From a bacterium (GTDB lineage: Bacteria > 4484-113 > JAFGCY01): a stretch of DNA of 64,000 bases. Below the pieces are notes generated by a model, which saw only the letters and a list, made by a program, of their open reading frames with translations, searched no databases and had not been told where the DNA came from. Below, piece by piece: positions 4,720-49,480 of this stretch. The position numbers were made by a program, and so were the translations under genes. Position 1 is the first letter of the stretch; each line of letters opens with the position of its first letter. Where the stretch lies: the NCBI GenBank assembly GCA_020440605.1, contig JAGRNT010000007.1, positions 55,083-119,082 of the forward strand, in the 5' to 3' direction.

Positions 4720-4767
4720 GTTCGTCACCTCATGTAATTAGACTATTAGAGAAGAATAGAAATAAAT

Positions 4768-4784
4768 CCGCAAAAAAAATGCGG
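4768..4784 (-). terminator. weak hairpin (CCGCA-T8-TGCGG) plus U-rich tract directly after arsR-family stop
   Basis: inverted repeat seen in sequence followed by AT-rich tract; possible partial terminator/attenuator between regulator and Cys-rich ORF. Confidence 0.3.
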
Positions 4785-5329: not shown

Positions 5330-7252
5330 TCACCAGCCGCGGCCGCCACCGCCGCCGCCACCTCCACCGCTGAATCCGCCCCCGCCTGAGCTGGAGCCAC
5401 CGCTGAAGCCACTGCCTGAACTGCTACCCCAGGAGCCGCTGGATGTACTGCCTCCGCCCCAGCCTCCACCTGATGATCCGCTGGAGGGAGGTGGAGGTGG
5501 CGGCAGTGAGGCCCTGCGGTAGACCCGGCTCAAGTTGCGGGGCAGATGCCGCGCCAGCCGGCTGTAATCGAGGTCCTGCGGCGAGAGATACTCCCGCGCG
5601 GGATCCGCATACCAGCCCGGAGCGCCGGCTTTGTAATGCTCGGGACGCAGATGCTGCAGCAGGATGCTCCACTGCGTATTCACGCCGAGCGCCACGGCGT
5701 AGGGCAGGTACTGTTCGCTGAGCACTTCGTCAGCGTATTCATACTGCCCGAGGCTGTCCTCGCCGCCGGTCATGGCCAGCCGGAAGCCCTCGATGCGGTC
5801 CAGCACGGCGCGCCCCAGTTCGCTGTAGGCCGGCAGCAGTGCATAGAACAGGAAGTTCAGCACGAACAGGGCCAGCAGCAGCAGGAAGAAATCCGCAGCC
5901 GAGAAGAAGAACAGTCCGAGCGCAAGGCAGACCAGCCAGATCCCGAAGCCGCTGACACTCAATACAATCCCTGTCTGGCGCTGTCGCTCATTCATTTCAT
6001 AGTAGACATGATGCAGTTCATGCACCAGCGAACTCTCAACGGCTCGCGTGGCACTGCGGAAACGGTGGTGGTTCTTGCTGTCGAGGGTGATCTGCTTGTA
6101 CTTTCCGCGGTAGATCGCCTCGATGAAGGCCCGCTCCTCGGGACGCAGGCCGGCGACCCCGTCGCGCAGGCGATGCAGCTTCCAGGCGCCATGGTGATGA
6201 TGCTCGATGCGCAGCACTCCGTTCTGCGCCAGCTCAAGGATCAGCGCGGTCATCAGGGTTTCGTCCACATCCAGCTTCCAGATGTAGCGCAGGCTGGCGG
6301 CACTGAGGCCGATCAGTGGACGTTCCTCACGCAGCACCAGCCCTTCGTGGGGATCGCGCCCGACGCGGATCCAGCTTGCCAGGTAGTAGATCCCGACGAT
6401 TGCCAGAATCAGCAGGCCGAGCGCCCAGCCGCCGTTGCTCTCCAGCCACCAGCGCAGGCGCAGCGTCGCTGGTGGTTCGGCGATGATGCCCTTCGGGAAG
6501 CCGGCCACGACCGTCAGTCCTTCGGAGGGTGCCAGGGGGCGCGTTGTCCGGAACAGCAGACCCTTGTCAAGCTGCTCCACCGCGTAGTCCCGGCCCAGAC
6601 TGCCATAGGGCCCCGTGTAGGCCTCACTGTGCAGCTGCTCAGGCGGGACGCTCTCCGGCAGCAGCACCCGGCAGCTCATTTCGTCGATGCCGAAGGCCCA
6701 GGAATTGCCGTTGACATTCCAGTAGAGTTCGTCGTGTTCGCTGAAGCGTCCGATCTGGCGCTGCATGCGGTAGCTGATCGCGTATACGTGCACACCGTGA
6801 TCGAGGAAACGGGCGGGACTGCCGATGCGCAGGCCCACGCCGTTCTTCAGGGCGTATTCCATGAACTCGGCGGGCTCGCCATCCTGGCTGACCGAGATGC
6901 GGTCCATGGGCACCAGCACCCTGCGCCCGCCGGAGCGGTAGATCGTGGGGATCTCGCGGATGATCCCGCGCTGGATCTCATTGCCGAGCACGAGCACGCT
7001 GATCCGCTCCGTGACCTCGATCGCGCCGTCCGGTTTGATCTGAACGGTGCTGTCAAACGAGAGTACTCGCTCGGGACCCGCAGGGACTGCCGCTTGCCCT
7101 TCCTCCCAGTTCTCCTGGAGCAGGTTGTCAAACAGCGCTCTGACTTCCGGACCTGGGTCGTATGGTGGATCAGGCACACTGCGCGGGGATTCAGCCTGCG
7201 CTGAGCAGGGCAGCAGCAGGGCCAGCAGGAGGCACAGCAGGCAGCGCATCAC
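5330..7252 (-). CDS. DUF2207-family membrane protein with C-terminal poly-Gly/Ser tail
   Basis: 640 aa; signal peptide, extracellular domain, TM segments, C-terminal GGGGFSGGGGGGGGGRGW tail; paralog of adjacent gene. Confidence 0.65.
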   Translation of the reverse strand: MMRCLLCLLLALLLPCSAQAESPRSVPDPPYDPGPEVRALFDNLLQENWEEGQAAVPAGPERVLSFDSTVQIKPDGAIEVTERISVLVLGNEIQRGIIREIPTIYRSGGRRVLVPMDRISVSQDGEPAEFMEYALKNGVGLRIGSPARFLDHGVHVYAISYRMQRQIGRFSEHDELYWNVNGNSWAFGIDEMSCRVLLPESVPPEQLHSEAYTGPYGSLGRDYAVEQLDKGLLFRTTRPLAPSEGLTVVAGFPKGIIAEPPATLRLRWWLESNGGWALGLLILAIVGIYYLASWIRVGRDPHEGLVLREERPLIGLSAASLRYIWKLDVDETLMTALILELAQNGVLRIEHHHHGAWKLHRLRDGVAGLRPEERAFIEAIYRGKYKQITLDSKNHHRFRSATRAVESSLVHELHHVYYEMNERQRQTGIVLSVSGFGIWLVCLALGLFFFSAADFFLLLLALFVLNFLFYALLPAYSELGRAVLDRIEGFRLAMTGGEDSLGQYEYADEVLSEQYLPYAVALGVNTQWSILLQHLRPEHYKAGAPGWYADPAREYLSPQDLDYSRLARHLPRNLSRVYRRASLPPPPPPSSGSSGGGWGGGSTSSGSWGSSSGSGFSGGSSSGGGGFSGGGGGGGGGRGW

Positions 7253-8994
7253 CAGCCGCTGCCTCCACCACCGCCGCCTCCGCCGCCGCTGAAGCCACCA
7301 CCGCCCCCGCCACTGCTGCTGCTCGGCGGTGTGGCGCTGTGGCTCACGGAACTGTTGAAGCTGCGCGGCATGTCGTCACTGAAGCCGCCGAAGTCAAAGG
7401 CATTGCCATGCATGTAGCGGCTGCCGCTGTATCCGCGGTACCAGCCCGGGGCTTCGACGCGCTCGCCACGGGACTGCAGCACGCGTCCGAACTGTTCGCC
7501 CCATTCCTTGTTGACATCCAGGGCCACGGCATGCGCCAGGTAGCGCTCAGAGAGCACGGTGTCGGCGTAGACGTAACCGCCGAGTGAATCCTCACCACCG
7601 AGCATTGCCAGCCTGAAGCCCTCGATGCGGTCCAGCACCGCGCGGCCCAGCTGGGTGTAGCTGGGCAGCAGCGCGCTGAAGATCCCCATCAGGATGATCA
7701 GCAGGATCGCCGTTGTCACGAGTATGACGTAGTTCGGGAGAATGATGTAGGTCGCGCTCAGCAGCCAGTAGATCATGAAGCCGATGATGCAGAACCACAT
7801 CCCGCGCCCCACATAGCTGGAGTTGCGCTCGTAGTAGACGTGGTGGTGCTCACGGTTGAGCTGCTCGCCGATGGCGCTCAGGGCCGCCGAGACCTTGGCA
7901 TAGTTGTCCTTGTCAATCTCGAACTTCTTCGTGCGACCGCTGAAGATCTTGTCCATGAAGATCCGTTCCTCGGGAAGGAGATCTCCATCCGTGACCTGCG
8001 TGCGCTCGATGCGGTACTTGCCCTTGCCGTACTCATGGATGATGATCCAGCCCTTCTGCGCGAGCTGGATCATGACCGCGCTCAGCAGGCCGCTGTCAGC
8101 GCTCATCTGCCAGATGTAGCGCAGGGCCGCAGGCGAGAGCCCGATCAGCGGGGTCTCCTCACGGATCACGAGCCCCTCGAGCGGGTCGCGGCCCACGCGC
8201 CACCAGAGCACCATGTAGTAGATGAAGCAGATGCCCAGCAGCAGCAGCGAGCCCGCCCAGAAGCCGTTGTCGGCAATCCACCAGCGCAGGCGACTCTGCG
8301 GAGTATCGAGCATCACCTGGCCGCGGGGGAAGCCGGCCACGATCGTCATGCCTTCATGGATACTCAGCGGACGTGTGCTTTCGTAGACAACCCGGCCCAG
8401 TTCCTCCACGCGGCTGACATAATCCTGGCCCGTGGCACCATAGACACCGGTGTAGCCATCCATGTCAATGCGGGAAGGCGCGATGTCATCGGGCAGCAGC
8501 ACGGTGGCCTTCACCTTGTCAATGCTGAAGGTCCAGTGGTTGCCGGTCACGTTCCAGTACAGTTCGTCGTGGTCGGCATATCTGCGCACCTGGCGCGGAG
8601 CGCTGTAGCGGATGGTGTAGACATGCTCACCCTGGGAGACTATGCGGTCCGCACTGCCGATGCGGATGCGCGTGGCTCCGCCTTCATGCTCGACCTTGAA
8701 TTCCTCGGGCACTCCGTCAAGGCGGATCTCCTTGACGCGCAGCGGTACGCGCACGGGACGCAGCATCCCGTGACGGATCGGGATGTCACGCAGGATGCCG
8801 TGGCGGATGGACTGGTTGCGCACGTTGAAGCGGATGTTCTCTGTGACGTCCACGCTGCTGTCGGCATTGATGCGGATCTCGGCCTCGTAGAGCAGGATCC
8901 GCTCCCAGAGGTCGGACTGGCTGACCGCCGATCCCGGCAGCAGGCAGACCACGAGGGCACACAACAGGCTCAGCAGGCGCAGGGAGCTTCGCAC
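7249..8994 (-). CDS. DUF2207-family membrane protein, paralog
   Basis: 581 aa; same architecture and C-terminal GGGGGGFSGGGGGGGGGSGW tail; stop overlaps downstream paralog start (4-nt overlap). Confidence 0.65.
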   Translation of the reverse strand: MRSSLRLLSLLCALVVCLLPGSAVSQSDLWERILLYEAEIRINADSSVDVTENIRFNVRNQSIRHGILRDIPIRHGMLRPVRVPLRVKEIRLDGVPEEFKVEHEGGATRIRIGSADRIVSQGEHVYTIRYSAPRQVRRYADHDELYWNVTGNHWTFSIDKVKATVLLPDDIAPSRIDMDGYTGVYGATGQDYVSRVEELGRVVYESTRPLSIHEGMTIVAGFPRGQVMLDTPQSRLRWWIADNGFWAGSLLLLGICFIYYMVLWWRVGRDPLEGLVIREETPLIGLSPAALRYIWQMSADSGLLSAVMIQLAQKGWIIIHEYGKGKYRIERTQVTDGDLLPEERIFMDKIFSGRTKKFEIDKDNYAKVSAALSAIGEQLNREHHHVYYERNSSYVGRGMWFCIIGFMIYWLLSATYIILPNYVILVTTAILLIILMGIFSALLPSYTQLGRAVLDRIEGFRLAMLGGEDSLGGYVYADTVLSERYLAHAVALDVNKEWGEQFGRVLQSRGERVEAPGWYRGYSGSRYMHGNAFDFGGFSDDMPRSFNSSVSHSATPPSSSSGGGGGGFSGGGGGGGGGSGW

Positions 8995-10614: not shown

Positions 10615-10810
10615 GACTCAATTCTGGCAACGGAGTGGAAGAAGTGGGGGAAGTGGGGGAAGTGGAAGAAGTTCCCGGTAGCGGTGGCACTCCTGCCGCC
10701 GGATCAGTGAACCGTGAACCATAAACAGTAAACAGTGATCAGTGAGCCGTAGCGGCGCAGTCCCACCGCGCCTGGGAGTGGATGCTGCGAAGCAATGAGC
10801 ATTTAAGATT
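10615..10810. repeat. mosaic intergenic repeat element (GGAAGT-type short tandem module + GTAGCGGTGGCACTCCTGCCGCCGG hairpin + CAGTGAACCG...TGGGAGTGGATGCTGCGAAGCAATGAGC module)
   Basis: modules recur at 13650-13750, 34135, 36024, 37490. Confidence 0.6.
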
Positions 10811-11283
10811 GAGCAATGTGCCTGACAAGCAATAGCCAGCTCGGCGCTTCTCTTCAATCTCTGCGCCTCTGCGCCGATAAACCAGGACTGGCGAGCACCC
10901 GGCTCCCGCGCGACTGCGCGCCTCCTGAGACAGAACCTGTGCACCTCACATTCTATCGATTGAACGCGTGGCCGGTGTGGCGGTTTTGTTGGTGCAGAGG
11001 CGCAGAAGGAATCCTGAGGCGCAGAGAATCTTAATTCTGGCAACAATCCTTCACACTAGAAGTGCATTACGCACGAAGCTCCCGCTCGCGTGCTGGCGTC
11101 GCTGGGCGACGCCGGTACTGTTGCCTGTTTACGGTTCACGGAAACGGCGGCCCGGAGGCCGCCGCTACTATCCAGACTATTCAAACTGCCAGGACTGTTC
11201 ACACTTTCCATAGCCCGAATTGCTTCGGGCCTCCAATTGGAGACCAGGCAGTTTGCCTGGCAATTGCCAAGCTTACAGCTTGG

Positions 11284-11365
11284 CCTCCAAGCCGAGCTTG
11301 CGCTCGACCTCCAAGCCGAGCTTGCGCTCGACCTCCATGCCCGGCTTGGGCCGGACCTCCTACTT
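11284..11365. repeat. 27-bp tandem repeat (CCAAGCCGAGCTTGCGCTCGACCTC x2 + degenerate third copy)
   Basis: seen directly; preceded by GCCAAGCTTACAGCTTGGCCTCC module also present at 37448. Confidence 0.6.
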
Positions 11366-13081
11366 GACAACCGCCCGTGCCGCGCAGGGACGGCCGTCGT
11401 CATTCGTCGTCACTTCCACGCGCACCTCGCAGTCGTAGCCATTCTCCTTCAGCCAATTGTTGACGGTCGCAGCCATCTTCCTGGCCGGAGTTTTGGCAGG
11501 GAAGCTGAACAGATGATCCTCGAAGCGGAAGCTCAGCTTGCCGTTGTCTGCTGATTCACGTTCCTCATCCATGAGCATCGTCAGTTCCAGCAGTTCCGCA
11601 TCCGGCAGCTGCAGCTCCAGGATCACATCCTGCAGTTCGTCAATCTTCTGCAGTTCAAGCTTCAGGTCACCGAGCTGCAGCTCCTCCAGGCCCTGCAGTT
11701 CGAGCCGCAGATCCTGGTTCATCTCCTCCAGGCTCAGCATCAGTTCCTGCTGGAAGGCCTCGCTCTCCAGATCACCGAGCTGCAGCTCCAGCACGAACTG
11801 CTCGCCATCGAGTTCATGCAGCAGCTCGAGCTGCAGGCCCTCATGCAGTTCACGCAGCTGCAGCTCCTGGTCGCGCAGTTCCTCGATGGCAACTTCGCGG
11901 ATCATGTCCAGCGAATCCAGGCCCTTGAGCGCCTCTTCGAGTTCAAGTCTGATCTCGCTGTCCTCGATTTCAATCAGGGCATCGTCGAGGTCGATCCCCG
12001 AGCTGCGCAGTTCCTCCTCCACCAGCTTCTGGATGTCCAGCTCCTCAAGCCTGGCGCGCTCCTCGTTCATTTCACTGCGGGCCTGCTCCAGTTCCTCACG
12101 CGCCCTGTCAATCTCGATCTTCCTGTCCTCAACCTGCACAGCTCGGACTTCCCTGAGCATCCGCTCATGCTCGCGATCGGAAATCCTGCGCTCAGATTCC
12201 CCGGCCCGGACCTTCTCCAGCCTGAGCTTCAGGTCCCTGACCCGTTCGCTCTCGCTGCCATCAGCATCCAGCAGCTCCAGCTGCGCCTCGATGACTGCAC
12301 TGGCCTCGGACAGGCGGCTTTCCCGCTCGCCCAGGGAGCTCTCCAGCAGATCACGGGCCCGCAGCAGTTCCTGCTGGGCCCGTTCGAGTTCCTCACGATT
12401 CTGCCGGTCAGCACCGCCGGCCAGCAGCTCGATCTCCTCCTTCAGTTCCTGCATCCGGCTGCGGATGCTGTCCTCATCGGTGTATTCACTGAAGCGCCGG
12501 TTGGCGCGCTCGCGTGCAGACTGCGCCTCGGGGTTCTCTTCTTCCATCACGAAGATCACACCGCTCAGGCTGCGCAGGTTGTCATCACTGAAACTGCTCA
12601 TCACCGCGACATGGTGTGCGCTTTCACGGATCGCACGGAAGCTGTCCAGGATGCCGCGGCTCTGGACCTCCCACTGCTCGCGCTTGGCGGCCTCCTCGTC
12701 GGCATTGCCGGCCACGCCGAGATCGAACACGATCGCCTGCCCGGCATTGTTGGCATAGGAGGTGCCGGCCGGCAGCTGGGCCACCACGCCGACTGCCAGC
12801 AGCAGTCCGCCCGCGATTGCCAGCCTGGCGGGCCAGGGCCGGCCGTGCATCAACTTCTCGATTGGATTCATCCTTTTCTCCCTGTTACTGGTTGCCTGTT
12901 CCCGTGCCGCTGCGAGCATCCGCTCCCGCCCGGGTTCGATCCCGGCGGGGATGCGCATGCCTGACAGCGCGCTGTTGATCTCAGCTTCCCGCCGCATCTC
13001 CGCGACTGTCTGCGCATCCACATCCGGCGGTGTGTCCGCCGCTGTCAGCTTGCCGAGCTGGATCCGTTTGATGGGGTCCAT
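11360..13081 (-). CDS. putative anti-sigma factor with single TM and ~470-aa acidic coiled-coil extracytoplasmic domain
   Basis: 573 aa; start overlaps ECF sigma stop (ATGA); N-terminal cytoplasmic segment, TM WPARLAIAGGLLLAVGVVAQL, then Glu/Leu/Arg-rich heptad-like repeats and a small C-terminal domain. Confidence 0.55.
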   Translation of the reverse strand: MDPIKRIQLGKLTAADTPPDVDAQTVAEMRREAEINSALSGMRIPAGIEPGRERMLAAAREQATSNREKRMNPIEKLMHGRPWPARLAIAGGLLLAVGVVAQLPAGTSYANNAGQAIVFDLGVAGNADEEAAKREQWEVQSRGILDSFRAIRESAHHVAVMSSFSDDNLRSLSGVIFVMEEENPEAQSARERANRRFSEYTDEDSIRSRMQELKEEIELLAGGADRQNREELERAQQELLRARDLLESSLGERESRLSEASAVIEAQLELLDADGSESERVRDLKLRLEKVRAGESERRISDREHERMLREVRAVQVEDRKIEIDRAREELEQARSEMNEERARLEELDIQKLVEEELRSSGIDLDDALIEIEDSEIRLELEEALKGLDSLDMIREVAIEELRDQELQLRELHEGLQLELLHELDGEQFVLELQLGDLESEAFQQELMLSLEEMNQDLRLELQGLEELQLGDLKLELQKIDELQDVILELQLPDAELLELTMLMDEERESADNGKLSFRFEDHLFSFPAKTPARKMAATVNNWLKENGYDCEVRVEVTTNDDGRPCAARAVVK

Positions 13082-13649: not shown

Positions 13650-13750
13650 GTGAAAAAATTGGAAGAAGTCGCGGGAACACTCCTGCCGCCGCAGCAGTGA
13701 ATCGGGAACAGTGAACAGGTGACCGTAACGGCGCACCCCACGTGTGCATG
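13650..13750. repeat. mosaic intergenic repeat element copy (GGAAGAAGT...CACTCCTGCCGCCG...CAGTGAATCGGGAAC...TGGGAGTGGATGGCGCAAG)
   Basis: shares modules with 10615-10810. Confidence 0.55.
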
Positions 13751-32572: not shown

Positions 32573-32971
32573 TCAGGCCTCCCGTCCGAGGACTTCCCCG
32601 GTCAGTTCCTGGATCTGCCGCGCACTGTAACCGAGGCTGCGCAGCTGGCGCACAGTCTCGCGCAGCTGCGCGATGCCGGGCAGTTCATCCAGGCCGTTGT
32701 CAGCGCTGCCCTCGTTGGGGTCGACGGCGAAGGTGCCGACGCCCCGCTTGCGCGAGAGGTAGCCCTCGCGCTCGAGGTCGGAATAGATCCGGCTGACGGT
32801 GTTGGCATTGATTCCCAGCTGCAACGCCATGTCCCGCACCGTGGGCAGCTGCATGCCGCTGGGCAGCTTGCCACGGTCGATCAGGTATCTGATCTGGTTC
32901 TTCACCTGTACGTAAATGGGCACTTCGCTCTCCAGATTCACGCGGATGGTGAGTTTGTCAGTGCTTTCCAT
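32573..32971 (-). CDS. GntR-family transcriptional regulator (short YhcF-like type)
   Basis: 132 aa winged HTH LPTVRDMALQLGINANTVSRIYSDLEREG. Confidence 0.8.
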   Translation of the reverse strand: MESTDKLTIRVNLESEVPIYVQVKNQIRYLIDRGKLPSGMQLPTVRDMALQLGINANTVSRIYSDLEREGYLSRKRGVGTFAVDPNEGSADNGLDELPGIAQLRETVRQLRSLGYSARQIQELTGEVLGREA

Positions 32972-33034: not shown

Positions 33035-33217
33035 TCAGTCCAGCGGGCGCCTGAACCACATGTGGATGTAGGTGCTGCCGGCCTCCAGTACGGAAGTCAG
33101 TTCCCAGCCCTGCAGGCCGAGATCGCGCAGGCTTTCATCGCTGGTCTTGATCTTGGAGTTCTCCACCTGCAGGCGCAGGTACTCCCAGCGCGTTCCCTTT
33201 GAATCTGATCTGCTCAT
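33035..33217 (-). CDS. DUF4177-like small protein
   Basis: 60 aa; WEY...LGLQGWELTSV motif. Confidence 0.5.
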   Translation of the reverse strand: MSRSDSKGTRWEYLRLQVENSKIKTSDESLRDLGLQGWELTSVLEAGSTYIHMWFRRPLD

Positions 33218-33284
33218 TGTTCTCCTCCACTAGACAATCGGTGTACTAGTGAACTAGAACAATAATAACCTAGAAGATAGTGGA

Positions 33285-33500
33285 AGTCAAGTGGGAGAAG
33301 TGGAAGTCAAGTGGGAGAAGTGGAAGAAGTGGATGAGGAAGTTCACCGTAGCGGCTGCTTCCAGCAGCCGGAGTGTAGCTCTGAGAGCTACAGGGCCTTG
33401 TCGGTCTGAGACCGACACTCCTTCGCTCCATGGCACGGCTTCACAGCACCTCCGTCTGCCGCTGAAGCGGGTAGCTCCGTTGTGCGACTTGCACCGCAGT
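33285..33500. repeat. mosaic repeat element copy A (GGAAGTCAAGTGGGAGAAGT tandem module, GTAGCGGCTGC hairpin, double-hairpin core 33370-33421, CCGCTGAAGCGGGTAGCTCCGTTGTGCGACTTGCACCGCA tail)
   Basis: core GGAGTG-GTAGCTCTGAGAGCTAC-AGGGCCTT-GTCGGTCTGAGACCGAC-ACTCC seen directly. Confidence 0.7.
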
Positions 33501-33529
33501 TCTGACATACGGCTGGGATAATTGCCCGC

Positions 33530-34093
33530 ATGTATTCGCATGATGAACTGACGCGCATCAGCCGCACGATCTCCCACGCTCTGCGGCATGCGCCGCAGGA
33601 GTACGGCATCGAGCTTGACAGGGAAGGCTGGGTGGAGCTGGGGACCCTGCTGGCAGCTCTCAGGCAGAAGGGCAGGCGTTTCCGGGATGTGGACGAGTCC
33701 AGCGTGCTTGACCTGATGGCCATCGCGGAGAAGCAGCGCTTCGAACTTGACAATGGCCGCATCCGGGCGGTCTACGGCCACAGCATCGAGCAGCCGATCA
33801 GCTACATGGCGAAGCAGCCACCACAGTATCTCTACCATGGCACCACCTCACGCGCGTTGGATGTGATCATGCGCGAGGGGCTGAAGTGCATGAACCGCCA
33901 GAAGGTGCACCTGTCCAGCGGCACGGAAACAGCGACCATAGTTGGCGCACGGCGGCAGAAGGCCCCGGTGATCGTCAGGGTGCGTGCGCTGGAGGCGAAT
34001 TCCGCAGGCGTCGGCTTCTACTACTGCAACCAGGACATCTGGCTCAGTGACGATGTGGGACCGGAGTGGTTGGAGCTGGAGGTCAGCCGTTAG
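33530..34093 (+). CDS. kptA: RNA 2'-phosphotransferase (Tpt1/KptA family)
   Basis: 187 aa; SHALRHAP, GWVEL, RFEL...IRAVYGHS, HGTT...EGL..M.R..VHLS motifs. Confidence 0.8.
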   Translation: MYSHDELTRISRTISHALRHAPQEYGIELDREGWVELGTLLAALRQKGRRFRDVDESSVLDLMAIAEKQRFELDNGRIRAVYGHSIEQPISYMAKQPPQYLYHGTTSRALDVIMREGLKCMNRQKVHLSSGTETATIVGARRQKAPVIVRVRALEANSAGVGFYYCNQDIWLSDDVGPEWLELEVSR

Positions 34094-34099
34094 GCTGAC

Positions 34100-34295
34100 A
34101 ACAATGGGGGAAGTGGTCAGTTGTCAGTGGTCAGTAGCGGCGGCACTCCTGCCGCTGGGGGAGGTTGGAGGTTGGAGTGGGGAGGTTGGAGGTTGGAGAA
34201 GGGAGTGTAGCTCTGAGAGCTACAAGGCCCTGTCGGTCTCAGACCGACTCACCGTCATTCCAAGGCACAGCTGCGCTGTGCCTCCGTTGTCAGCT
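34100..34295. repeat. mosaic repeat element copy B (GGAGGTTGGAG tandem module, GTAGCGGCGGCACTCCTGCCGC hairpin, double-hairpin core ~34201-34250)
   Basis: seen directly. Confidence 0.7.
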
Positions 34296-34480
34296 TTACA
34301 GCAGACCTCCTTGTCATCCTCACGGATGACCTCCGCGTAAAAAAAAATCCCCGCCGGCACCACTGTTGCAGGTGCTCAGGCGAGGACTCTCAGGCGGTGC
34401 GCCGCACTGCCAACTGCAGTGCTGAGCCCGATGCGGGCTGGGCTGCACCTCAGGGAAGCAAGGACCTGCTTCCCCCAGGT

Positions 34481-35458
34481 TCAAAGGTCGCGGTAGCTGA
34501 AGTTCTTGTCAAAGCCGTCGCGGGCCTTGCCATCCACCTCGACATAGGGGTAGATCAGGAAATTCAGCGGACCGTCCTGCACGCCGGGGATGGCGAGGTC
34601 GCGGCCCATCACGAATTCGATGCGGTCGTTGTCAAGGTTGCCGAACAGCTCCTCACGGCGCTCCGGGGCCTTGGCGACTTCGCTGGCATCGATCGGGATC
34701 CAGCCCTGGTCGTCATCGTAGAACTCGGCCCAGCAGTGGTAACCGCCCACGCTGCCCTCGGGGGCATCATTCGGGATCGGGAAGCCCATCAGGAAACGGG
34801 CCGGCACACCGAGGCTGCGGCTCTCGCCGATGAACAGGCTGTGGAAGTCCGTGCAGTTGCCATAGCGGGCATCACAGGCCCACTCGGCATCCCCGCGGCC
34901 CCAGCCCTCGCGGCTCTTGTCGTAGACGACGGTCGTGACGATGTTGTCATACAGCGCACGGGCGATCATGTAATCGTCGGCGGCATCCCCGGCGACCCGG
35001 GCGGCCTCCTCGGCGACCTCACCCTCCAGCGTGACCATGTTGTCAGGCTTGAGGAAGCGCTCCACCATCGAGGCATCGGTGTCATAGCCCCCGGCATAGC
35101 CGTAGCGCTCGACTTCGTAGCTGACGCTGACGGGCAGGCGGCCCTCACTGTCCGGCTCGATCGCCAGCAGGTCCACCTGCAGGAAGCTGTTGCCGTACTC
35201 CGGATCCGTGACCATTTCGTAGGAGAGATCGCCGGCATCCCAGCTCAGCACCTTCTGGCGCTCATTGCTCGGCGGCACGGGAATCCAGACGAAGGCGGAA
35301 CTGGCTCCTTCATCAACGGCGGGCACGAACACCCCGTAGGTGAACTCCATCTTGCGCGGCTCCAGTGCGCCGTCCATCTCGTCCTGCTGGGCCTGAGCCT
35401 GGCCGAACAGCCCGATGGAAAGCGCGAGCAGCGCAAGCGAAAGCAGCTTGCGTTTCAT
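34481..35458 (-). CDS. secreted transglutaminase-like cysteine protease domain protein
   Basis: signal peptide; Cys (GNCTDF), His (GYHCWAEF), Asp (WIPID) triad. Confidence 0.75.
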   Translation of the reverse strand: MKRKLLSLALLALSIGLFGQAQAQQDEMDGALEPRKMEFTYGVFVPAVDEGASSAFVWIPVPPSNERQKVLSWDAGDLSYEMVTDPEYGNSFLQVDLLAIEPDSEGRLPVSVSYEVERYGYAGGYDTDASMVERFLKPDNMVTLEGEVAEEAARVAGDAADDYMIARALYDNIVTTVVYDKSREGWGRGDAEWACDARYGNCTDFHSLFIGESRSLGVPARFLMGFPIPNDAPEGSVGGYHCWAEFYDDDQGWIPIDASEVAKAPERREELFGNLDNDRIEFVMGRDLAIPGVQDGPLNFLIYPYVEVDGKARDGFDKNFSYRDL

Positions 35459-35573
35459 GCTTACTCCTTATATATATGGGTTGGCAGGAGCGATACCGCT
35501 CCGCGCAGTAATGTAACCTACCGCTGGACGGGTTCATTTGATTTTGTGTTCTCATTTGAGGAGTGAGCTGAGT

Positions 35574-35966
35574 ATGGAGCCGATGAGATCCTGGAAGTAC
35601 ACGGTCTACAAGGAGGTGGAGTTCGCCGCTTCGCACTTCCTGCGCGAGTATCACGGCAAGTGCGAGCACCTGCATGGGCATAACTACGTGGTGCGGGTCT
35701 ATGTCAGCGCGGACGAGCTGGACGGTGAGGGGATGGTCTACGACTTCGTGCGGCTCAAGCAGATGATGAATGAGGTGTTCTATGAGCGCTTCGACCACAA
35801 GCATCTGAACGAGATCCCGCCCTTTGATGAAATCAACCCCTCGGCGGAGAACATCGCGACATGGATCGGCGAGCAGATGGGCGGGCTGCTGGACGATGGG
35901 CGCGTGCGGGTCACGGAAGTGCGGGTCTGGGAAACGGCGCGCAACGGCGCGATCTACAGGAGGTAG
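35574..35966 (+). CDS. queD: 6-carboxy-5,6,7,8-tetrahydropterin synthase (QueD/PTPS family)
   Basis: CEHLHGHNY zinc-binding motif; GAGGAG RBS. Confidence 0.8.
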   Translation: MEPMRSWKYTVYKEVEFAASHFLREYHGKCEHLHGHNYVVRVYVSADELDGEGMVYDFVRLKQMMNEVFYERFDHKHLNEIPPFDEINPSAENIATWIGEQMGGLLDDGRVRVTEVRVWETARNGAIYRR

Positions 35967-36250
35967 TGGGCAGATGCAGAAGCAGAAGCAGAATGAGAAG
36001 CAGAAGCAGCAGGCGGTAGCGGCGGCACTCCTGCCGCCGGGGTAGGTTGGAGGATTGAGTGCGGAGGTTGGAGTGGGGAGTGTAGCTCTGAGAGCTACAG
36101 GGCCTTGTCGGTCTAAGACCGACACTCCGATGGAGGCCAGGCGGATCTGCCTGGCGGAAGCAGGTTGGAGTGGGGAGTGAGAAGGTTGGAGAATAGGCAG
36201 AAGGCAAAAGGCAATAGGCAGTGGGCAATGATGGGCAGGTCACATCGGGG
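35967..36250. repeat. mosaic repeat element copy C (GCAGAAGCAGAAGCAGAATGAGAAGCAGAAGCAG tandem module, GTAGCGGCGGCACTCCTGCCGCCGG hairpin, core 36077-36128, GGCAGAAGGCAAAAGGCAATAGGCAG tail)
   Basis: seen directly. Confidence 0.7.
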
Positions 36251-36258
36251 AATGGAAC

Positions 36259-37311
36259 ATGGACAGAAAGATAATCCTGGCAGTGAGCTCAGCGCTACTT
36301 GTGCTGGTGGTGGTACTCGCCGGCTTGTTGCTTTTGTTTGCCAACAGGGGTACTGTCAACCTCCTGAACATAATCTCCCCACCGCAGCAGCAGGTCAACA
36401 ACACGCAGGGCAGTACAACATCCAAGACACCCCAGGCTACAGCTGATGCCGACTATGCCGCGAGGCGTGCGGAGGCCCTTGATTGCAGGTATGGGATCGG
36501 CCGCGATGTCGACATGCTTGAGGCGGAGCGCATCCTCACTGAACTAACTGACGAAGGCGATGCAGTTGCCGCAGCCCACCTGTTCACGCAGATCGTGATC
36601 GGCCTGCATCCGTACTCCCGTCGGGAAGAGGCGGATGAGATCTGGCGGAAGGCAAGCGATGAGTTGTATGAGCTATCCGAAAGTGGCGACCTGGAGGCAG
36701 GATTTGCTGTGGCCTGCGCCTACAAGGGAGTAGATGAGGAGAAGAGCTGGAGCCTGTTCATGGACAGGCTGACGAACCGTTGTGTGGAGGAGGGCTTCAT
36801 TCCGGGGATCCTGCTGCGGGCCGAGCTGCTGATGAAGGGCCGCCACCTTGAACAGGACCGCTACGAGTCAATCCGGCTGTACCAGATGTGTGTGGACATG
36901 GACTGCGTGGCGGCAATGACGAGGCTTGGCAATATAAACATGAGTGTGGACTACCCGGAGCATGACATGGAACTGGGGCGGGCAATGCTGGAGCAGGCCG
37001 GCGAACGCGGAGACCCCGACGCCTGGTACCAGCTCGTTTACCGCGAATGGACTGATGAGATGGATGCGGCAACTCGCGACAGGGTTGAGCTCCACCTGCG
37101 CAAGGCATGGAAATGCGGGGAAATCGGTGCGTCCATCAGGCTGGTCAAGCTGCTGCTGGATGACAGTGGACCTGCGCCGGACCTTGTGGAGTGCAGGCGG
37201 ATCATGGATGAAATCGGGCCTGAGCTGAGCATCGCACCACCGGATGATGACAACCGGCTGCTGTACGACGAATGCGCTGCTGAACTTGAGCAGCTGGAAG
37301 GCGGACGGTAG
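36259..37311 (+). CDS. membrane-anchored Sel1/TPR-like repeat protein
   Basis: 350 aa; N-terminal TM; repeated A-x-x-Y/W helical hairpins; flanked on both sides by repeat elements. Confidence 0.55.
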   Translation: MDRKIILAVSSALLVLVVVLAGLLLLFANRGTVNLLNIISPPQQQVNNTQGSTTSKTPQATADADYAARRAEALDCRYGIGRDVDMLEAERILTELTDEGDAVAAAHLFTQIVIGLHPYSRREEADEIWRKASDELYELSESGDLEAGFAVACAYKGVDEEKSWSLFMDRLTNRCVEEGFIPGILLRAELLMKGRHLEQDRYESIRLYQMCVDMDCVAAMTRLGNINMSVDYPEHDMELGRAMLEQAGERGDPDAWYQLVYREWTDEMDAATRDRVELHLRKAWKCGEIGASIRLVKLLLDDSGPAPDLVECRRIMDEIGPELSIAPPDDDNRLLYDECAAELEQLEGGR

Positions 37312-37690
37312 CGGTGGCTTCAAGCCGCCCGGGTAGGTTGGATGTTGGAGTGGGGAGTGTAGCTCTGGGAGCTACAGGGCCTTGTCGGTCTAAGACCGAC
37401 ACTCCGGAGCCAGCGCAGCTACGGCTTAGCCTCCGCAACGCGGCTCCTTCCGTTGCCAGGCTTACAGCTTGGCCTCCCCTAAGCAATGAGTTGCGAAGAG
37501 TGAGCAATGAGTGATTCGCAGGTCGAAGTTTACACCAGCCCTTCCCAGGCTCATGGCTCATTCTTCATTGCTCATCACTAGCCAGTCCGGAATGTTCCGG
37601 CGGCGGCATCCGTCGCCCGACTGACATCGAGCCTCCGCCTACCGCTGAAGCGGGTAGCTCTGTTGTGCGACTTGCGCCGCACTTCCATCA
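37312..37690. repeat. mosaic repeat element copy D (GGTTGGATGTTGGAG module, core 37355-37405, GCTTACAGCTTGGCCTCC module, GCGAAGAGTGAGCAATGAG module, CCGCTGAAGCGGGTAGCTCTGTTGTGCGACTTGCGCCGCA tail)
   Basis: seen directly. Confidence 0.7.
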
Positions 37691-38368
37691 GCCGTCGTTG
37701 ACGACCTCGAGCTTGATGTGCTGGTGGCGGATGATCTCACCCTCCACCATGAACACCACGTCCTCGGCGATGTTCGTGGCCTGGTCCGCGATGCGCTCCA
37801 GGTGCCGGCTGGACATCATCAGCTCGATGTTCTGCTGCGAGTTCTGCGGATTGGCGACCAGGTTGTCGGTCAGCTCGTTGATGATGCGCTCATTGGCGGC
37901 GTCGATCACATCATCACGGGCAATCACCGCGCGGGCCAGTCCGGCGTCCAGGTTGACGAGCGCCTTGAGGCTGTCCCCGACCATGGCCCGCACCTGCTCC
38001 GCCAGTGCCGTGAGCTGCGGGCGTCCCGCCGGAGTCGGCATCTGCGAGAGCCGCAGGGCGCTGCGGGCAATGTTGCAGGCCAGGTCACCCATCCGCTCCA
38101 GCGTGCTGTTGACCTTGATGGAAGCCACTATGAAGCGCAGGTCCGTGGCCACCGGCTGGTGCAGAGCCAGCAGCTTCAGGCAGTCCTCCTCGATGTCAAC
38201 CTCGAGCTGGTCGATGGTCTGGTCGAGTTCCAGCACCTCCTGGGCCAGCTCGGGCCGCTGGCCGGCAAGGGCGGCTATCGCCTTCTGGATCGAGCTCTCC
38301 ACCAGGCCGCCGATCTCGAGGATGTGGCGCTCGATGGAGCTCATGTCGCGGGTCAGATGCTTGTTCAT
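37688..38368 (-). CDS. phoU: phosphate signalling complex protein PhoU
   Basis: 226 aa; two PhoU repeats. Confidence 0.9.
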   Translation of the reverse strand: MNKHLTRDMSSIERHILEIGGLVESSIQKAIAALAGQRPELAQEVLELDQTIDQLEVDIEEDCLKLLALHQPVATDLRFIVASIKVNSTLERMGDLACNIARSALRLSQMPTPAGRPQLTALAEQVRAMVGDSLKALVNLDAGLARAVIARDDVIDAANERIINELTDNLVANPQNSQQNIELMMSSRHLERIADQATNIAEDVVFMVEGEIIRHQHIKLEVVNDG

Positions 38369-41378: not shown

Positions 41379-41398
41379 TAGGGGTAGCTGTGTTGGGG

Positions 41399-42601
41399 TC
41401 AGACGAGCGGCTGGCCGTTCTCGCCCTTGATCTCGCCGGCCCACATCGCCTCAACGCTCTCCACCACGGAGCTGGGCATCGGGATGTAGTCGAGGCCGAG
41501 AGCTTCCTCGCTGCCGTACTCGAAGGCCCACTTGAAGAACTTCAGGGCCTCTGCGGAAGCGGCATCATCCTCGGGGCTCTTGTACATCAGGATGAAGGTG
41601 GCGGCGGTCATCGGCCAGGTGGAGTCGCCGGGCTGGTTGGCGAGGATCACACCGTAACCGGGAACGCTGTTCCAGTCAGCGCTGGCGGCTGCGGCGGCGA
41701 AGGCATCGGCATCGGGGCTGACGGTTTTGCCGGCCTTGTTGATCATGTTGCAGTGCGTCATGCTGTTCTGCTTGGCGTAGGCGTACTCGACGTAGCCGAT
41801 GCTGAACTTGGCGCCAGCCACGTTCTGGGCAACGCCCTCGTTGCCCTTGGCACCGATGCCGACCGGCCACTCGACGGCCTTGTCAACACCGACCTCGTTC
41901 CTCCAGGCCTCGCTGACCTCGGCCAGGTAGTAGGTGAAGTTGTAGGTCGTACCGGAACCGTCGGAGCGGGTGACCACGTTGATGCTGGCATCGGGCAGCG
42001 TCACGCCGGCATTGAGGGCGGCGATCGCCGGGTCGTTCCAGTTGCTGATCTTGCCCATGAAGATGTCAGCGAGTGTCGTGCCGTCCAGGGTGATCTGGCC
42101 TGCAGTGATTCCGTCGAGATTGATGACGGGGACGATGCCGCCCATCACCATCGGCCACTGCACGAGGCCGCTCTCCGTAAGCTCCTCACCGCTGAGCGGG
42201 GCATCGGTGGCGCCGAAGGTCACGGTTTTGGCCTTGATCTGCTTGATGCCGCCGCCGGAACCGATGGACTGGTAGTTCAGGCCCACGCCTGTTTCCTTCT
42301 GGTAGCTGTCAGCCCATTTGGAATAGATCGGATACGGGAAGGTGGCTCCGGCACCGGCGATCTGGCCCACACCGCCCGCGGAGGAAGTATCGCCTGCGGT
42401 CGTGTCGGCAGCGGAGCTGTCGGTGCTGGTGCTGCTGTTGTCCGCTATGCTGGAAGAGCTGGAGCTGCTGCTGTCGGTTGACGTGCTGTCAGTCTCGGAC
42501 GGGCAACCCGTCGCAAACGCGGCGAGGATGGCAACCGTGGCCAGCAGGGCCAGCGCCCGGAGCGGGAAGATGGTGTTCAGGATCATGCCTGTGCGATTCA
42601 T
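41399..42601 (-). CDS. pstS: phosphate-binding lipoprotein PstS (copy 1) with Ser/Thr-rich linker
   Basis: GGAGG RBS, lipobox FATGC, then 40-aa S/T/D-rich linker, then GAGATFPYPIYSKWADSYQ PstS fold. Confidence 0.85.
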   Translation of the reverse strand: MNRTGMILNTIFPLRALALLATVAILAAFATGCPSETDSTSTDSSSSSSSSIADNSSTSTDSSAADTTAGDTSSAGGVGQIAGAGATFPYPIYSKWADSYQKETGVGLNYQSIGSGGGIKQIKAKTVTFGATDAPLSGEELTESGLVQWPMVMGGIVPVINLDGITAGQITLDGTTLADIFMGKISNWNDPAIAALNAGVTLPDASINVVTRSDGSGTTYNFTYYLAEVSEAWRNEVGVDKAVEWPVGIGAKGNEGVAQNVAGAKFSIGYVEYAYAKQNSMTHCNMINKAGKTVSPDADAFAAAAASADWNSVPGYGVILANQPGDSTWPMTAATFILMYKSPEDDAASAEALKFFKWAFEYGSEEALGLDYIPMPSSVVESVEAMWAGEIKGENGQPLV

Positions 42602-42644
42602 TGTTATACCTCCGTTATAGGCAGGGAGAATGTACTGAGGCCGT

Positions 42645-42671
42645 GTGTGAATTTCGTGAAGATAACGTGAA
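42645..42671 (-). promoter_or_regulatory. Pho-box-like triple direct repeat TTCAC-N6-TTCAC-N4-TTCACA upstream of pstS-1
   Basis: GTGAA at 42647, 42656, 42667 (spacing 9 and 11), 46 nt upstream of ATG. Confidence 0.5.
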
Positions 42672-42770
42672 TCCACATGAATTCTTGACAAATCAGCTGC
42701 ATTGGCAACTCTGTGGATTGCCGGACTCCCGGCTCACGGGACAGCTGCATCACCGTCCGGGCTTGCCTGC

Positions 42771-42819
42771 AAAATGCAGAGGCTCCCCCGCAGGCAACTT
42801 GCACCTTCGGGAGAGCCTC
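42771..42819 (-). terminator. hairpin + U-tract after pstS-2
   Basis: GAGGCTCTCCCG...CGGGGGAGCCTC stem then TGCATTTT. Confidence 0.4.
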
Positions 42820-42839
42820 ATCTGGTCGAAGCCTGGGGC

Positions 42840-43925
42840 TTAGATCAGCGGCTTGCCGTTGGCACCCTTGATCTCCTTGGACCACATCGCCTCGACACTG
42901 TCCACAACGGACTTCGGCATCGGGATGTAGTCCAGGCCGAGCGCCTCGGTGTCACCCATCTCAAAGGCCCACTTGAAGAACTTCAGGGCCTGGGTGGAAG
43001 CGGCGTCATCCTCGGGGCTCTTGTACATCAGGATGAAGGTGGCGGCGGTCATCGGCCAGGTGGAATCGCCGGGCTGGTTGGCGAGGATCACACCGTAACC
43101 GGGCACGCTGCTCCAGTCAGCACTGGCGGCGGCGGCGGCAAAGGCATCGGCATCGGGGCTGACGGCCTTGCCGGCCTTGTTGATCATCTTGGTATACGTC
43201 AGACCGTTCTGCTTGGCATAGGCATACTCGACGTAACCGATGCTGTTCTTGGCGCCGGCCACGTTCTGGGCCACGCCCTCGTTGCCCTTGGCACCGATGC
43301 CGACCGGCCACTCGACGGCCTTGTCAACGCCGATCTCGCTCTTCCACGTGCTGCTGACATCAGCCAGGTAGTAGGTGAAGTTGTAGGTGGTGCCGGAACC
43401 GTCGGAGCGGGTGACCACGTTGATGCTCGTGCTCGGCAGGCTGACGCCGCCGTTGAGCTTGGCAATCGCGGGATCGTTCCACTTGGTGATCTTGCCCATG
43501 AAGATGTTGGCAAGCGTGCTGCCATCCAGCACGAGCTGGCCGGGCTTGACACCCTCCACGTTGATGACGGGGACGATGCCGCCCATCACCATCGGCCACT
43601 GCACGAGGCCGGACTCGCTGAGTTCCTGGCCGCTGAGCGGGGCGTCGGTGGCACCGAAGGTCACGGTCTTGGCCTTGATCTGCTTGATGCCGCCGCCGGA
43701 ACCGATGGACTGGTAGTTCAGACCGATACCGGTTTCCTTCTGGTAGCTGTCAGCCCACTTGGAATAGATCGGATACGGGAAGGTCGCTCCCGCGCCGGCG
43801 ATCTGCTCGGCTGCGCTGGCGGGCGTGCCGCGGAAACCGGCAGCCAGGGCAGCGAGAATGACAACTCCGGTGAAGACCAGCATGGCCTTCAGCGGATTAC
43901 TGTTCAGGTTCTTACCTGTGCGCAT
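42840..43925 (-). CDS. pstS: phosphate-binding protein PstS (copy 2)
   Basis: GGAGG RBS; signal peptide; no S/T linker; ~85% identical mature domain to copy 1. Confidence 0.85.
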   Translation of the reverse strand: MRTGKNLNSNPLKAMLVFTGVVILAALAAGFRGTPASAAEQIAGAGATFPYPIYSKWADSYQKETGIGLNYQSIGSGGGIKQIKAKTVTFGATDAPLSGQELSESGLVQWPMVMGGIVPVINVEGVKPGQLVLDGSTLANIFMGKITKWNDPAIAKLNGGVSLPSTSINVVTRSDGSGTTYNFTYYLADVSSTWKSEIGVDKAVEWPVGIGAKGNEGVAQNVAGAKNSIGYVEYAYAKQNGLTYTKMINKAGKAVSPDADAFAAAAASADWSSVPGYGVILANQPGDSTWPMTAATFILMYKSPEDDAASTQALKFFKWAFEMGDTEALGLDYIPMPKSVVDSVEAMWSKEIKGANGKPLI

Positions 43926-43969
43926 TGTTATACCTCCGTTATAGGCAGGGAAAATGTACTCAGGCAGTA

Positions 43970-43995
43970 TGTGAATCAAGTGAAGGACAGGTGAA
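43970..43995 (-). promoter_or_regulatory. Pho-box-like triple direct repeat upstream of pstS-2
   Basis: GTGAA at 43971, 43980, 43991 (spacing 9 and 11), 46 nt upstream of ATG; leader duplicated from pstS-1. Confidence 0.5.
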
Positions 43996-44027
43996 CCCGG
44001 GTAATTTACTGGGGAAACGGCTGGTTG

Positions 44028-49244: not shown

Positions 49245-49391
49245 CTCCGCCGGACGGTTCGGACACAATTCCGCGGAACCGCAGGGATATCCAGCGAAAG
49301 CGCAGGATTCCTCCACGGAATCGCAGACTTAAATCAGGATTAAGACTTGGTTGCCGGTTCCCGGCAGGCTGCCGTCATTCGCAAACCGGAT

Positions 49392-49424
49392 AAAAAAACG
49401 GGGAGGCCTGGGCTGGCCTCCCCG
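49392..49424 (-). terminator. rho-independent terminator after nucleotidase gene
   Basis: GGGGAGGCC-agccc-AGGCCTCCCC followed by TTTTTTT on minus strand. Confidence 0.65.
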
Positions 49425-49480
49425 GATGCTGGTGGTCCCCGGTGTCTTTTCACCGGAATGAGGATGGTTAAACGAGGGAT

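Follow-up and report, generated by a model that had tools for sequence, protein, structure and literature searches.

What kind of element is the short hairpin-bearing sequence that recurs in the intergenic gaps of this locus, and how did it come to lie there? Within the window (the whole 64-kb stretch of DNA that was analyzed), we found four plus-strand intergenic copies of a 52-nt core, all inside 4.1 kb, where shuffled sequences are expected to give no matches. The core has the layout GGAG-(TGTAGCTC-N3-GAGCTACA)-GGGCCT-(TGTCGGTC-N3-GACCGACA)-CTCC and the consensus sequence GGAGTGTAGCTCTGAGAGCTACAGGGCCTTGTCGGTCTAAGACCGACACTCC. The copies are as follows.

33370..33421, plus strand: core copy 1, one mismatch to the core, in the gap from which the 60-aa/GntR operon and KptA diverge
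34202..34253, plus strand: core copy 2, the most diverged of the four, with an altered outer 3′ arm, between the convergent KptA and transglutaminase-like genes
36077..36128, plus strand: core copy 3, the consensus sequence with no mismatches, between QueD and a 350-aa gene
37354..37405, plus strand: core copy 4, one mismatch, between the convergent 350-aa gene and PhoU

The original prediction of a 52-bp core thus captured a real repeat of that length in four copies, but the string it wrote out has 54 letters; because two letters were inserted, this literal string has no match in the window even when 3 mismatches are allowed. It also counted seven or more loci. Only four cores are present in the window, and its "partial copies" at 10615-10810, 11258-11365, and 13650-13750 consist of accessory modules only, with no core found there by a covariance model. 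An assembly artifact was ruled out, as independent ENA assemblies match the region at 99.7 to 100% identity; one ENA contig (L009) terminates within core 2.

The core is made of two related hairpins in tandem, each folding separately on a stem of 8 bp (rather than the 7 bp first claimed), with short inverted ends that form a 4-bp outer helix (GGAG/CUCC). Its fold energy is −24.6 kcal/mol as RNA (z = −3.4) and −14.4 kcal/mol as DNA (z = −4.3), in both cases more stable than that of shuffled sequences, and folding is equivalent on the two strands. GTAG and GTCG in the core are paired with CTAC and CGAC within perfect palindromes, leaving no free tags.

Across 11 aligned core copies, the mean identity is 91%, and both hairpins are kept in every copy. 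Variable columns make up 5 of the 32 hairpin stem positions versus 8 of the 13 unpaired positions (P = 0.004 by Fisher's test), or 1/32 versus 7/13 when the copy from L016 is left out (P = 0.0003). The L016 copy (11121-11173, minus strand) is the positional orthologue of core 2 and has double changes, from A-U to C-G and from U-A to A-U, with both hairpins retained. These data show that the core is constrained to keep both hairpins. The outer stem, which had been drawn as enclosing a three-way junction, is poorly supported: the inverted ends (GGAGT/ACTCC) span 4 to 5 bp and are degenerate in 4 of the 11 copies, and the third pair of the stem is broken, uncompensated, in 4/11.

In 10 of the 11 copies, across four genomes, the palindromes are invariant while the loop centers vary freely, as would be expected if the N3 loops were spacers in a double-stranded DNA site. 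Each 19-bp palindrome would then bind one dimer of a nucleoid-associated, chromosome-organizing, or regulatory protein, under purifying selection and with no mobile spread. The low copy number combined with conservation that is high even where a genome has only one exact copy, and the clustering of copies within 4 kb at a GC-skew step (−0.006 to +0.043) would also suit such a site. However, the L016 copy alters the palindromes and keeps the pairing, a better fit to a single strand that folds than to a fixed double-stranded sequence. All sites are intergenic, most of them at 3′ ends rather than promoters, no candidate binding protein was identified, and identical 52-nt sequences at nonorthologous sites would still require a copy-paste origin. 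We consider a protein-binding site of this kind unlikely.

Exact matches to the core among 185,579 species genomes were limited to six loci in three UBP7-lineage MAGs (one to three each), and the exact-pattern scan gave one match in the complete 4.1-Mb genome CP060262.1. The covariance model of the core found 12 copies in ~197 kb of related DNA and nothing besides. The core was absent from the viral contigs, plasmids, and phages searched, and a full-text literature search did not find it; a JGI metagenome match (L007) was rejected as a chance 22-nt match, with neither hairpin present in the alignment. A comparison with Rfam 15, one of the checks originally proposed, placed the core in no known family, with no matches at the gathering score over 64 kb and none at an E value of ≤1 over 33200-37700. 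The core is a discrete low-copy module that occupies nonorthologous gene 3′ ends in four or more related genomes; its family is not abundant. Core copies at nonorthologous sites are 92 to 98% identical, whereas the flanking genes of the carrier genomes are only 68 to 94% identical. The single-copy genome has ~94% identity to the consensus, which points to purifying selection on the sequence, something that a purely selfish element would not need.

As a separate observation, the GC skew steps from −0.006 to +0.043 at ~33 kb. An origin or terminus marker was rejected: the window contains no dnaA/par-type genes, and the skew goes from zero to positive with no sign reversal. No tRNA or tmRNA genes were found in the window.

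The core has been gained or lost between close relatives, as the proposed check for insertion polymorphism revealed. Cores 1, 3, and 4 have no counterpart at the orthologous sites of any relative examined (L016, L013, L012, L011, and L018; for core 1, L016, L013, and L018), and the site that carries a core in L001/L003 has none at its equivalents in the window, L016, and L012. At the core 3 site, the repeat/hairpin scaffold is shared by L013, which lacks the core, and in L011 the two genes that flank core 3 are separated by a gap of only 7 nt. The core at the L001 site stands in place of an unrelated spacer of equal length and is therefore no clean insertion. No target-site duplication was found at 10 core sites; core 3 is placed within a GGTTGGAG tandem repeat, and the 18-nt direct repeat AGGTTGGAGTGGGGAGTG that flanks it (36065-36082 and 36162-36179) belongs to the tandem repeat. 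With no target-site duplication and no cognate IS, the suggestion of a classical MITE is not supported.

Changes in gene content around the cores raise another explanation, a plasticity zone whose gene cassettes are bounded by the cores and recombine there, which would mediate the gain and loss of KptA and the 350-aa gene. The four copies are in direct orientation, with cores 1 and 2 enclosing KptA and cores 3 and 4 enclosing the 350-aa gene; KptA is missing from L013 and L012, and the gene content of the QueD-PhoU interval is different in every relative examined. However, KptA occurs with one core in L016 and with none in L018, a 343-aa homologue is found in L013 without cores, and all relatives keep the transglutaminase-like gene and QueD, the pair located between cores 2 and 3. 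At other loci, single cores are found next to housekeeping genes, e.g., lexA and dnaX, the 64-kb window has no integrase or recombinase, and the core ends are unlike attC sites. Cassette boundaries seem extremely unlikely.

About 9 of the 10 independent core sites are downstream of a gene, and ~5 are between convergent genes. In L001/L003, L002, L006, and L016, the cores lie 2 to 5 nt past stop codons, and in L001/L003 the core exactly fills the intergenic gap. Together with the stable fold, its equivalence on both strands, and the compensatory change in L016, the placement between convergent genes and the filled gap in L001/L003 could indicate an independent structured RNA gene (the sRNA family of the original prediction) or a strict factor-independent bidirectional terminator. 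However, copies that abut stop codons leave no room for a promoter, making an independent sRNA gene unlikely, and core 1 occupies a divergent promoter gap. None of the cores coincides with a promoter-like or terminator-like consensus, and Rfam gave no match even at an E value of ≤1. No U tract follows the hairpins, although the lineage uses canonical hairpin-plus-U7-9 terminators elsewhere (sequence at 49385-49425). We regard an RNA gene or strict terminator as very unlikely.

The cores are only one part of the intergenic gaps, which are a patchwork of short tandem repeats, GTAG hairpins, hairpin-CCTCC units, and the core. The GTAG hairpins of the window include the following.

33348..33370, plus strand: GTAG-CGGCTGCT-TCC-AGCAGCCG, directly abutting core 1
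34134..34157, plus strand: GTAG-CGGCGGCA-CTCC-TGCCGCTG, with one G·T pair
36016..36039, plus strand: GTAG hairpin with a perfect 8-bp stem
37308..37332, plus strand: variant CGGTGGCT/AGCCGCC-CG, its tag overlapping the TAG stop codon of the 350-aa gene
10678..10772, plus strand: two GTAG hairpins (10678-10701 and 10749-10772) with a CAGTGAA tandem repeat between them, downstream of pyruvate kinase, with no core
11145..11168, minus strand: GTAG-CGGCGGCC-TCCG-GGCCGCCG, in the sense orientation of the convergent minus-strand gene

These hairpins have 8-bp stems and 3- to 4-nt loops, and their unpaired terminal GTAG tag is invariant in eight scanned copies (from the window, L002, and L013) and in the copy at 37308. 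Stem position 8 occurs as A-T, T-A, C-G, and G-C, positions 2, 5, and 6 are compensated, and three copies have T·G pairs; the compensated positions and G·T pairs are on the sense strand of the upstream gene. Six of the seven window copies are downstream of a gene, with the tag 5′ on its sense strand. The presence of a GTAG-CGGYGGCA...TGCCGCCG hairpin near the cores, noted in the original prediction, was confirmed. Published GTAG-REPs have an unpaired tag, a 6- to 13-bp stem, a short loop, and complementary stem variants; they lie downstream of ORFs, are present in the PVC superphylum, and are clustered at a few T. roseum loci (PMC3733652). In its tag, in its stem, loop, and variants, and in its extragenic downstream position, the accessory hairpin GTAG-CGGCGGCA-CTCC-TGCCGCCG matches what defines a GTAG-tagged REP by sequence. 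We count this agreement with the published traits (PMC3733652) in favor of a BIME-like reading.

The other modules of the patchwork are listed below.

33273..33333, plus strand: GGAAGT-type tandem repeat with 9- and 20-nt units, one of which holds the −35 box of the 60-aa/GntR promoter
34112-34135 and 34158-34205, plus strand: GGTCAGT repeat and GGAGGTT/GGTTGGAG repeat, respectively, flanking the REP hairpin upstream of core 2
35970..36009, plus strand: GCAGAA tandem repeat, beginning 4 nt past the QueD stop codon
36162..36228, plus strand: GGTTGGAG-type and AGGCAAA-type tandem repeats, downstream of core 3
34264..34334, plus strand: three tandem 22- to 25-nt stem-loop-stem-CCTCC units, which read as GGAGG-hairpin on the minus strand (z = −4.1)
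11266..11360, plus strand: four tandem 23- to 24-nt hairpin-CCTCC units, abutting the stop codon of the minus-strand gene at 11360-13081 (z = −5.4)
37590..37687, plus strand: hairpin-CCTCC and CTACCGC-TGAA-GCGGGTAG tail modules, abutting the PhoU stop codon
37478..37585, strand unassigned: ~110-nt imperfect palindrome with AGCAATGAG-type arms, a separate repeat family also found in L013 (two copies), L004, and L018

Copy-specific short tandem repeats thus accompany the cores, as predicted, and the tail modules are indeed held in common (33449-33502 and 37632-37685 are 91% identical; 11264-11288 and 37453-37477 are 96% identical). Module combinations vary both between copies and between related genomes, in agreement with the earlier view of an interchangeable-module mosaic resembling BIMEs and Correia elements. 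A Csr/Rsm-type GGA-rich sponge RNA was considered for the GGAAGT and GGTTGGAG repeats and was rejected because the GCAGAA, CAGTGAA, and AGGCAAA repeats are without GGA motifs. We also set aside the GntR-family regulator (32573-32971) as a protein using the core palindromes as operators, because the conserved promoter region of its operon carries its own, different palindrome (GTACTAGTGAACTAG) and because cores are absent from relatives that keep the operon.

The repeat is probably part of a lineage-specific, BIME-like mosaic of small noncoding copy-paste hairpin modules in a few intergenic gaps. Its parts would be the GTAG REP-type hairpins, the tandem GTTG-stem-loop-stem-CCTCC units, the purine-rich tandem repeats, and the 52-nt core. 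New core copies may be made by copy-paste from a conserved source sequence, either by a trans-acting enzyme or through gene conversion between gaps bearing tandem repeats; because GTAG REPs are coresident, a RAYT-type HUH transposase would be the obvious candidate enzyme. Given their position against stop codons, the copies are probably part of transcripts, at mRNA 3′ ends or in intercistronic spacers, where the hairpins would act like REPs, as barriers to 3′-exonucleases or read-through and not as canonical terminators. A Pfam search of ~260 kb found no RAYT, IS200-like, integrase, or other transposase gene in the window or beside any copy, and tblastn for RAYT/IS200, a weak test, gave only noise. 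The lack of a nearby transposase, of target-site duplications, and of free tags counts against the BIME-like reading, as does the low copy number, since tens to hundreds of members are usual for REP and MITE families. A more specialized role, beyond that of an ordinary selfish repeat, is doubtful: the core could be the dedicated recognition substrate of a protein in this candidate phylum (e.g., a domesticated HUH nuclease or an RNA-binding protein), held at low copy across species by purifying selection, marking gene 3′ ends and seeding local plasticity. If so, that plasticity would comprise tandem-repeat growth, module shuffling, and gene gain and loss at KptA and QueD-PhoU.

Nearly all work on REPs, BIMEs, and REPINs has concerned Proteobacteria and a small number of cultured PVC bacteria. 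Such modules are now documented in the uncultured UBP7 lineage, with dated gain and loss between close relatives and with compensatory evolution. These repeats break short-read assemblies of the lineage and could serve as strain markers. A low-copy, highly conserved core in constant association with tandem repeats could show how REP-like elements are recognized and how they reshape intergenic DNA, which would require finding the cognate enzyme.

Several known systems can be set beside the core. It has neither the IS-matching terminal inverted repeats nor the target-site duplication of a MITE, and its flanks lack the T runs of a canonical intrinsic terminator, with no terminator-like site at any copy. 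Integron attC sites are imperfect single long hairpins with R″/R′ sites (RYYYAAC/GTTRRRY) and an adjacent intI integrase; the core has GGAGTG/CACTCC ends and two short perfect hairpins, and no integrase is found in the window. Pneumococcal BOX and neisserial Correia elements are 100 to 150+ nt long, and the Correia type carries 26-nt terminal inverted repeats along with a TA duplication and an IHF site. Like the repeats described here, BOX and Correia elements are modular and intergenic, vary in the number of internal units, and form stable RNA structures, and cotranscription with neighboring genes is a further likeness. Unlike them, the repeats here show no length of 100 to 150+ nt, no 26-nt repeats, TA duplication, or IHF site, and no sequence similarity.

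Among the closest parallels are GTAG-REPs and BIMEs (Di Nocera et al. 2013, PMC3733652; Nunvar et al. 2010, PMC2817692), which are likewise small GC-rich intergenic hairpins, mostly downstream of ORFs, in gaps with convergent or codirectional genes, with complementary stem variants and G·T pairs and with several families per genome forming mosaics. In contrast to GTAG-REPs, the GTAG and GTCG of the core are base-paired within perfect palindromes, and the core joins two different hairpins head to tail, between short inverted ends; its copy number is apparently low, no RAYT gene was seen in the ~260 kb examined, and the modules are interleaved with many different short tandem repeats. REPINs are REP doublets mobilized by RAYTs, with tens to hundreds per genome (Bertels & Rainey 2011, PMC3116915). 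They share with the core a two-hairpin unit as the replicating entity, the lack of target-site duplication, and a conserved "master" consensus across relatives beside older decayed copies (PMC3116915). However, a REPIN joins two inverted REPs into one long hairpin, whereas the hairpins of the core are direct neighbors that fold separately and are few. With no free tag and no inversion into one long hairpin, the core itself does not fit the description of a GTAG-REP or a REPIN. Despite the mosaic build, the gaps do not show the alternating REPs and small conserved linker set of BIMEs: on the 3′ side of any one gene, the modules all have the same orientation, and variable short tandem repeats serve as linkers. 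The repeat is a new UBP7-lineage family of the familiar REP/BIME type rather than a new kind of system; as it stands, it is an ordinary type of feature in a new host.

The repeat in these gaps is a 52-nt core, GGAGTGTAGCTCTGAGAGCTACAGGGCCTTGTCGGTCTAAGACCGACACTCC. The 54-letter string put forward for it in the original prediction does not occur as such; minus one G and one C, it is the real core. A pattern search, for which shuffled sequences predict no matches, returned one exact and two near-exact copies, and a fourth copy is more diverged. The four cores occupy four consecutive intergenic gaps:

33370, + strand: core 1, one mismatch
34202, + strand: core 2, more diverged
36077, + strand: core 3, exact match
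37354, + strand: core 4, one mismatch

The flanking genes are of ordinary kinds (a GntR regulator, KptA/Tpt1, a transglutaminase-like protein, QueD/PTPS, a 350-aa protein with no Pfam match, and PhoU-PstBAC). The repeats are real, as independent ENA assemblies give the same region at 99.7 to 100% identity; one contig of these assemblies stops inside core 2.

The core folds into two 8-bp hairpins, TGTAGCTC-N3-GAGCTACA and TGTCGGTC-N3-GACCGACA, with GGGCCT between them and a 4-bp GGAG/CUCC helix closing both. Its stability is alike on both strands and above that of shuffles (RNA fold, -24.6 kcal/mol, z about -3.4; DNA fold, -14.4 kcal/mol, z about -4.3). The integrity of the hairpins is under selection: among 11 aligned copies, 5/32 hairpin stem columns vary, compared with 8/13 unpaired columns (P = 0.004), and when the copy from the related genome AC1.30 (locus L016) is left out, the proportions are 1/32 and 7/13. 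In the L016 copy, two double substitutions (A-U to C-G and U-A to A-U) leave both hairpins intact, and one outer G-C pair has become G-U. This copy and core 2 are 77% identical, each being nearer to the family consensus than to the other, as would be expected if both are old and have decayed separately, the near-consensus copies being young. The outer helix, on the other hand, is not maintained, with its third pair broken on one side only in 4/11 copies, which makes the predicted three-way junction doubtful.

To follow the core between relatives, we fetched orthologous loci from five related genomes (L011 to L016 and L018). Nucleotide identity to the window is 87 to 94% for L016, 68 to 89% for L013 (CP060262.1), and 70 to 81% for L012. 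The core has been gained and lost among these genomes. Cores 1, 3, and 4 have no counterpart in the orthologous gaps of any relative compared. Downstream of QueD, L013 has the same scaffold as the window (GGTCAGT repeat, accessory GTAG-tagged hairpin, GGTTGGAG repeat, and AGGCAG repeat) without the core; in the window, core 3 and an extra hairpin sit inside the GGTTGGAG repeat, with one copy of an 18-nt unit on each side. In the more distant L011, only 7 nt separate QueD from the next gene. At L001/L013 and L003, a core exactly fills a 62-nt gap with convergent genes on either side, and the same site in the window and in L016 lacks the core and holds an unrelated spacer equal in length. Core 2 is the sole window core with a positional orthologue, located in L016 2 nt past the KptA stop codon; L018 has KptA and no core. 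The idea that cores mark cassette boundaries fits the data poorly. As a separate observation, the QueD-PhoU interval (35967-37687) is a gene-content hot spot, holding one to three genes whose set differs in each relative (L011, L012, L013, and L016), and KptA/Tpt1 occurs in the window, L016, and L018 but in neither L013 nor L012.

Cores prefer the 3′ ends of genes. They lie 2 to 5 nt past stop codons at L001/L003, L002 (after lexA), L006, and L016, and the remaining ones are about 40 to 350 nt or less from a stop codon. Of ten independent sites, about five have convergent genes on either side, and one falls in a divergent gap. Cores point either way with respect to the gene upstream, which is what an almost symmetric element should show. 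No U tract was found 3′ of the core hairpins, and canonical terminators are in use elsewhere in the lineage; a strict terminator fits the data poorly, as does an sRNA. The cores would instead be transcribed within 3′ UTRs, where they may play a REP-like role as a barrier at the RNA 3′ end.

A different element lies nearby, downstream of the transglutaminase-like gene. This ∼140-nt stretch (34335-34480, - strand) matches L016 at 100% identity and L013 at about 93%, and it is more conserved than the surrounding coding DNA, being recognizable even in L012, a relative at 74% amino acid identity. It folds into four to five hairpins and has a canonical stem-plus-U7-9 terminator at its end, with four pairs showing compensatory change, and has no match in Rfam. 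It is a candidate 3′-UTR-derived sRNA or cis-regulatory element.

Across one genome per species (185,579 species), an exact-pattern scan found six core loci, all in three MAGs labeled UBP7 or Planctomycetales (CP060262.1, JAWLAZ01, and JAGRNR01). A covariance model trained on 11 copies and run over about 197 kb of related DNA found only 12 copies. The family is therefore lineage restricted and low copy, and the four window cores within 4.1 kb are an unusual local cluster. The model found nothing at 10.6, 11.3, and 13.7 kb, where further partial copies had been proposed; these sites hold accessory modules only. No core was found in viral contigs, plasmids, or phages, and neither Rfam nor the searched literature held a match. 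A single JGI metagenome match was attributed to chance. That a low-copy element should be so strongly conserved in sequence is the main tension in these data and keeps alive the alternative that the core is a protein recognition site.

The whole-window GC skew profile has a step at ∼33000, coinciding with the repeat cluster: the skew is flat (-0.006) over 1 to 33 kb and steadily positive (+0.043) over 33 to 64 kb. The orthologous loci L016 and L013 show the step too, and most genes on either side of it lie on the - strand.

The short tandem repeats, the GTAG-CGG hairpin, and the shared tail modules around the cores are present as originally described. The GTAG hairpin, GTAG-CGGCGGCA-CTCC-TGCCGCCG, recurs in the window (seven copies), L002, L013, and L018. 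Its tag is invariant, its stems carry compensated differences (stem position 8 shows all four pair types), and where T.G pairs occur, they are on the sense strand of the gene upstream. A second module is a ∼24-nt tandem unit, GTTG-stem-loop-stem-CCTCC, that abuts the stop codons of - strand genes:

11266-11360, upstream gene on - strand: ∼24-nt hairpin units
34264-34334, upstream gene on - strand: ∼24-nt hairpin units
37590-37687, upstream gene on - strand: ∼24-nt hairpin units

The stem sequence varies from unit to unit, the single-stranded flanks are conserved (GGAGG...CAAC when read along the sense strand of the gene upstream), and each array starts 0 to 1 nt from the stop codon. A separate family consists of imperfect palindromes of ∼110 nt with arms of AGCAATGAG/CTCATTGCT units:

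37478-37585, window: ∼110-nt palindrome
∼4700-4887 and ∼7854-8022, L013: ∼110-nt palindrome
4633-4760, L004: ∼110-nt palindrome
∼3200-3280, L018: ∼110-nt palindrome

Other duplications were also seen. At 33262-33333, the -35 hexamer TTGACT of a promoter-like site of the 60-aa/GntR operon is within a 20-nt unit that is single in L001 and L016 and tandemly duplicated in the window; the repeat thus duplicates a promoter element. The PstS-like phosphate-binding genes at 41399-42691 and 42840-43979 (region 41395-44023) lie next to each other and are tandem paralogues with about 86% nucleotide identity, and two neighboring DUF2207 membrane protein paralogues (5330-8994) have 3′ (C-terminal) coding ends made of GCC/GCCACC triplet-type low-complexity repeats.

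Combinations of modules and short tandem repeats differ at each orthologous gap compared, which bears out the BIME-like description first given. Of the readings considered, a BIME-like mosaic built from REP-type hairpin modules has the most support; in it, the core is a discrete two-hairpin unit spread by copy-paste. Neither the 64-kb window nor the surroundings of any core copy contain transposase, integrase, or RAYT (REP-linked Y1 HUH transposase) genes; an unseen HUH-type enzyme could mobilize the core, or copies could pass between tandem-repeat-bearing gaps through gene conversion. The core family is real and previously undescribed; it comes from an uncultured lineage and belongs to a well-known class of bacterial repeats. 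GTAG-tagged REPs have been described in PVC bacteria and are sometimes grouped at a few loci (PMC3733652), and the window's GTAG hairpin has their published defining traits (PMC3733652). The ∼110-nt palindromes are closer to MITEs and REPINs than the core is.
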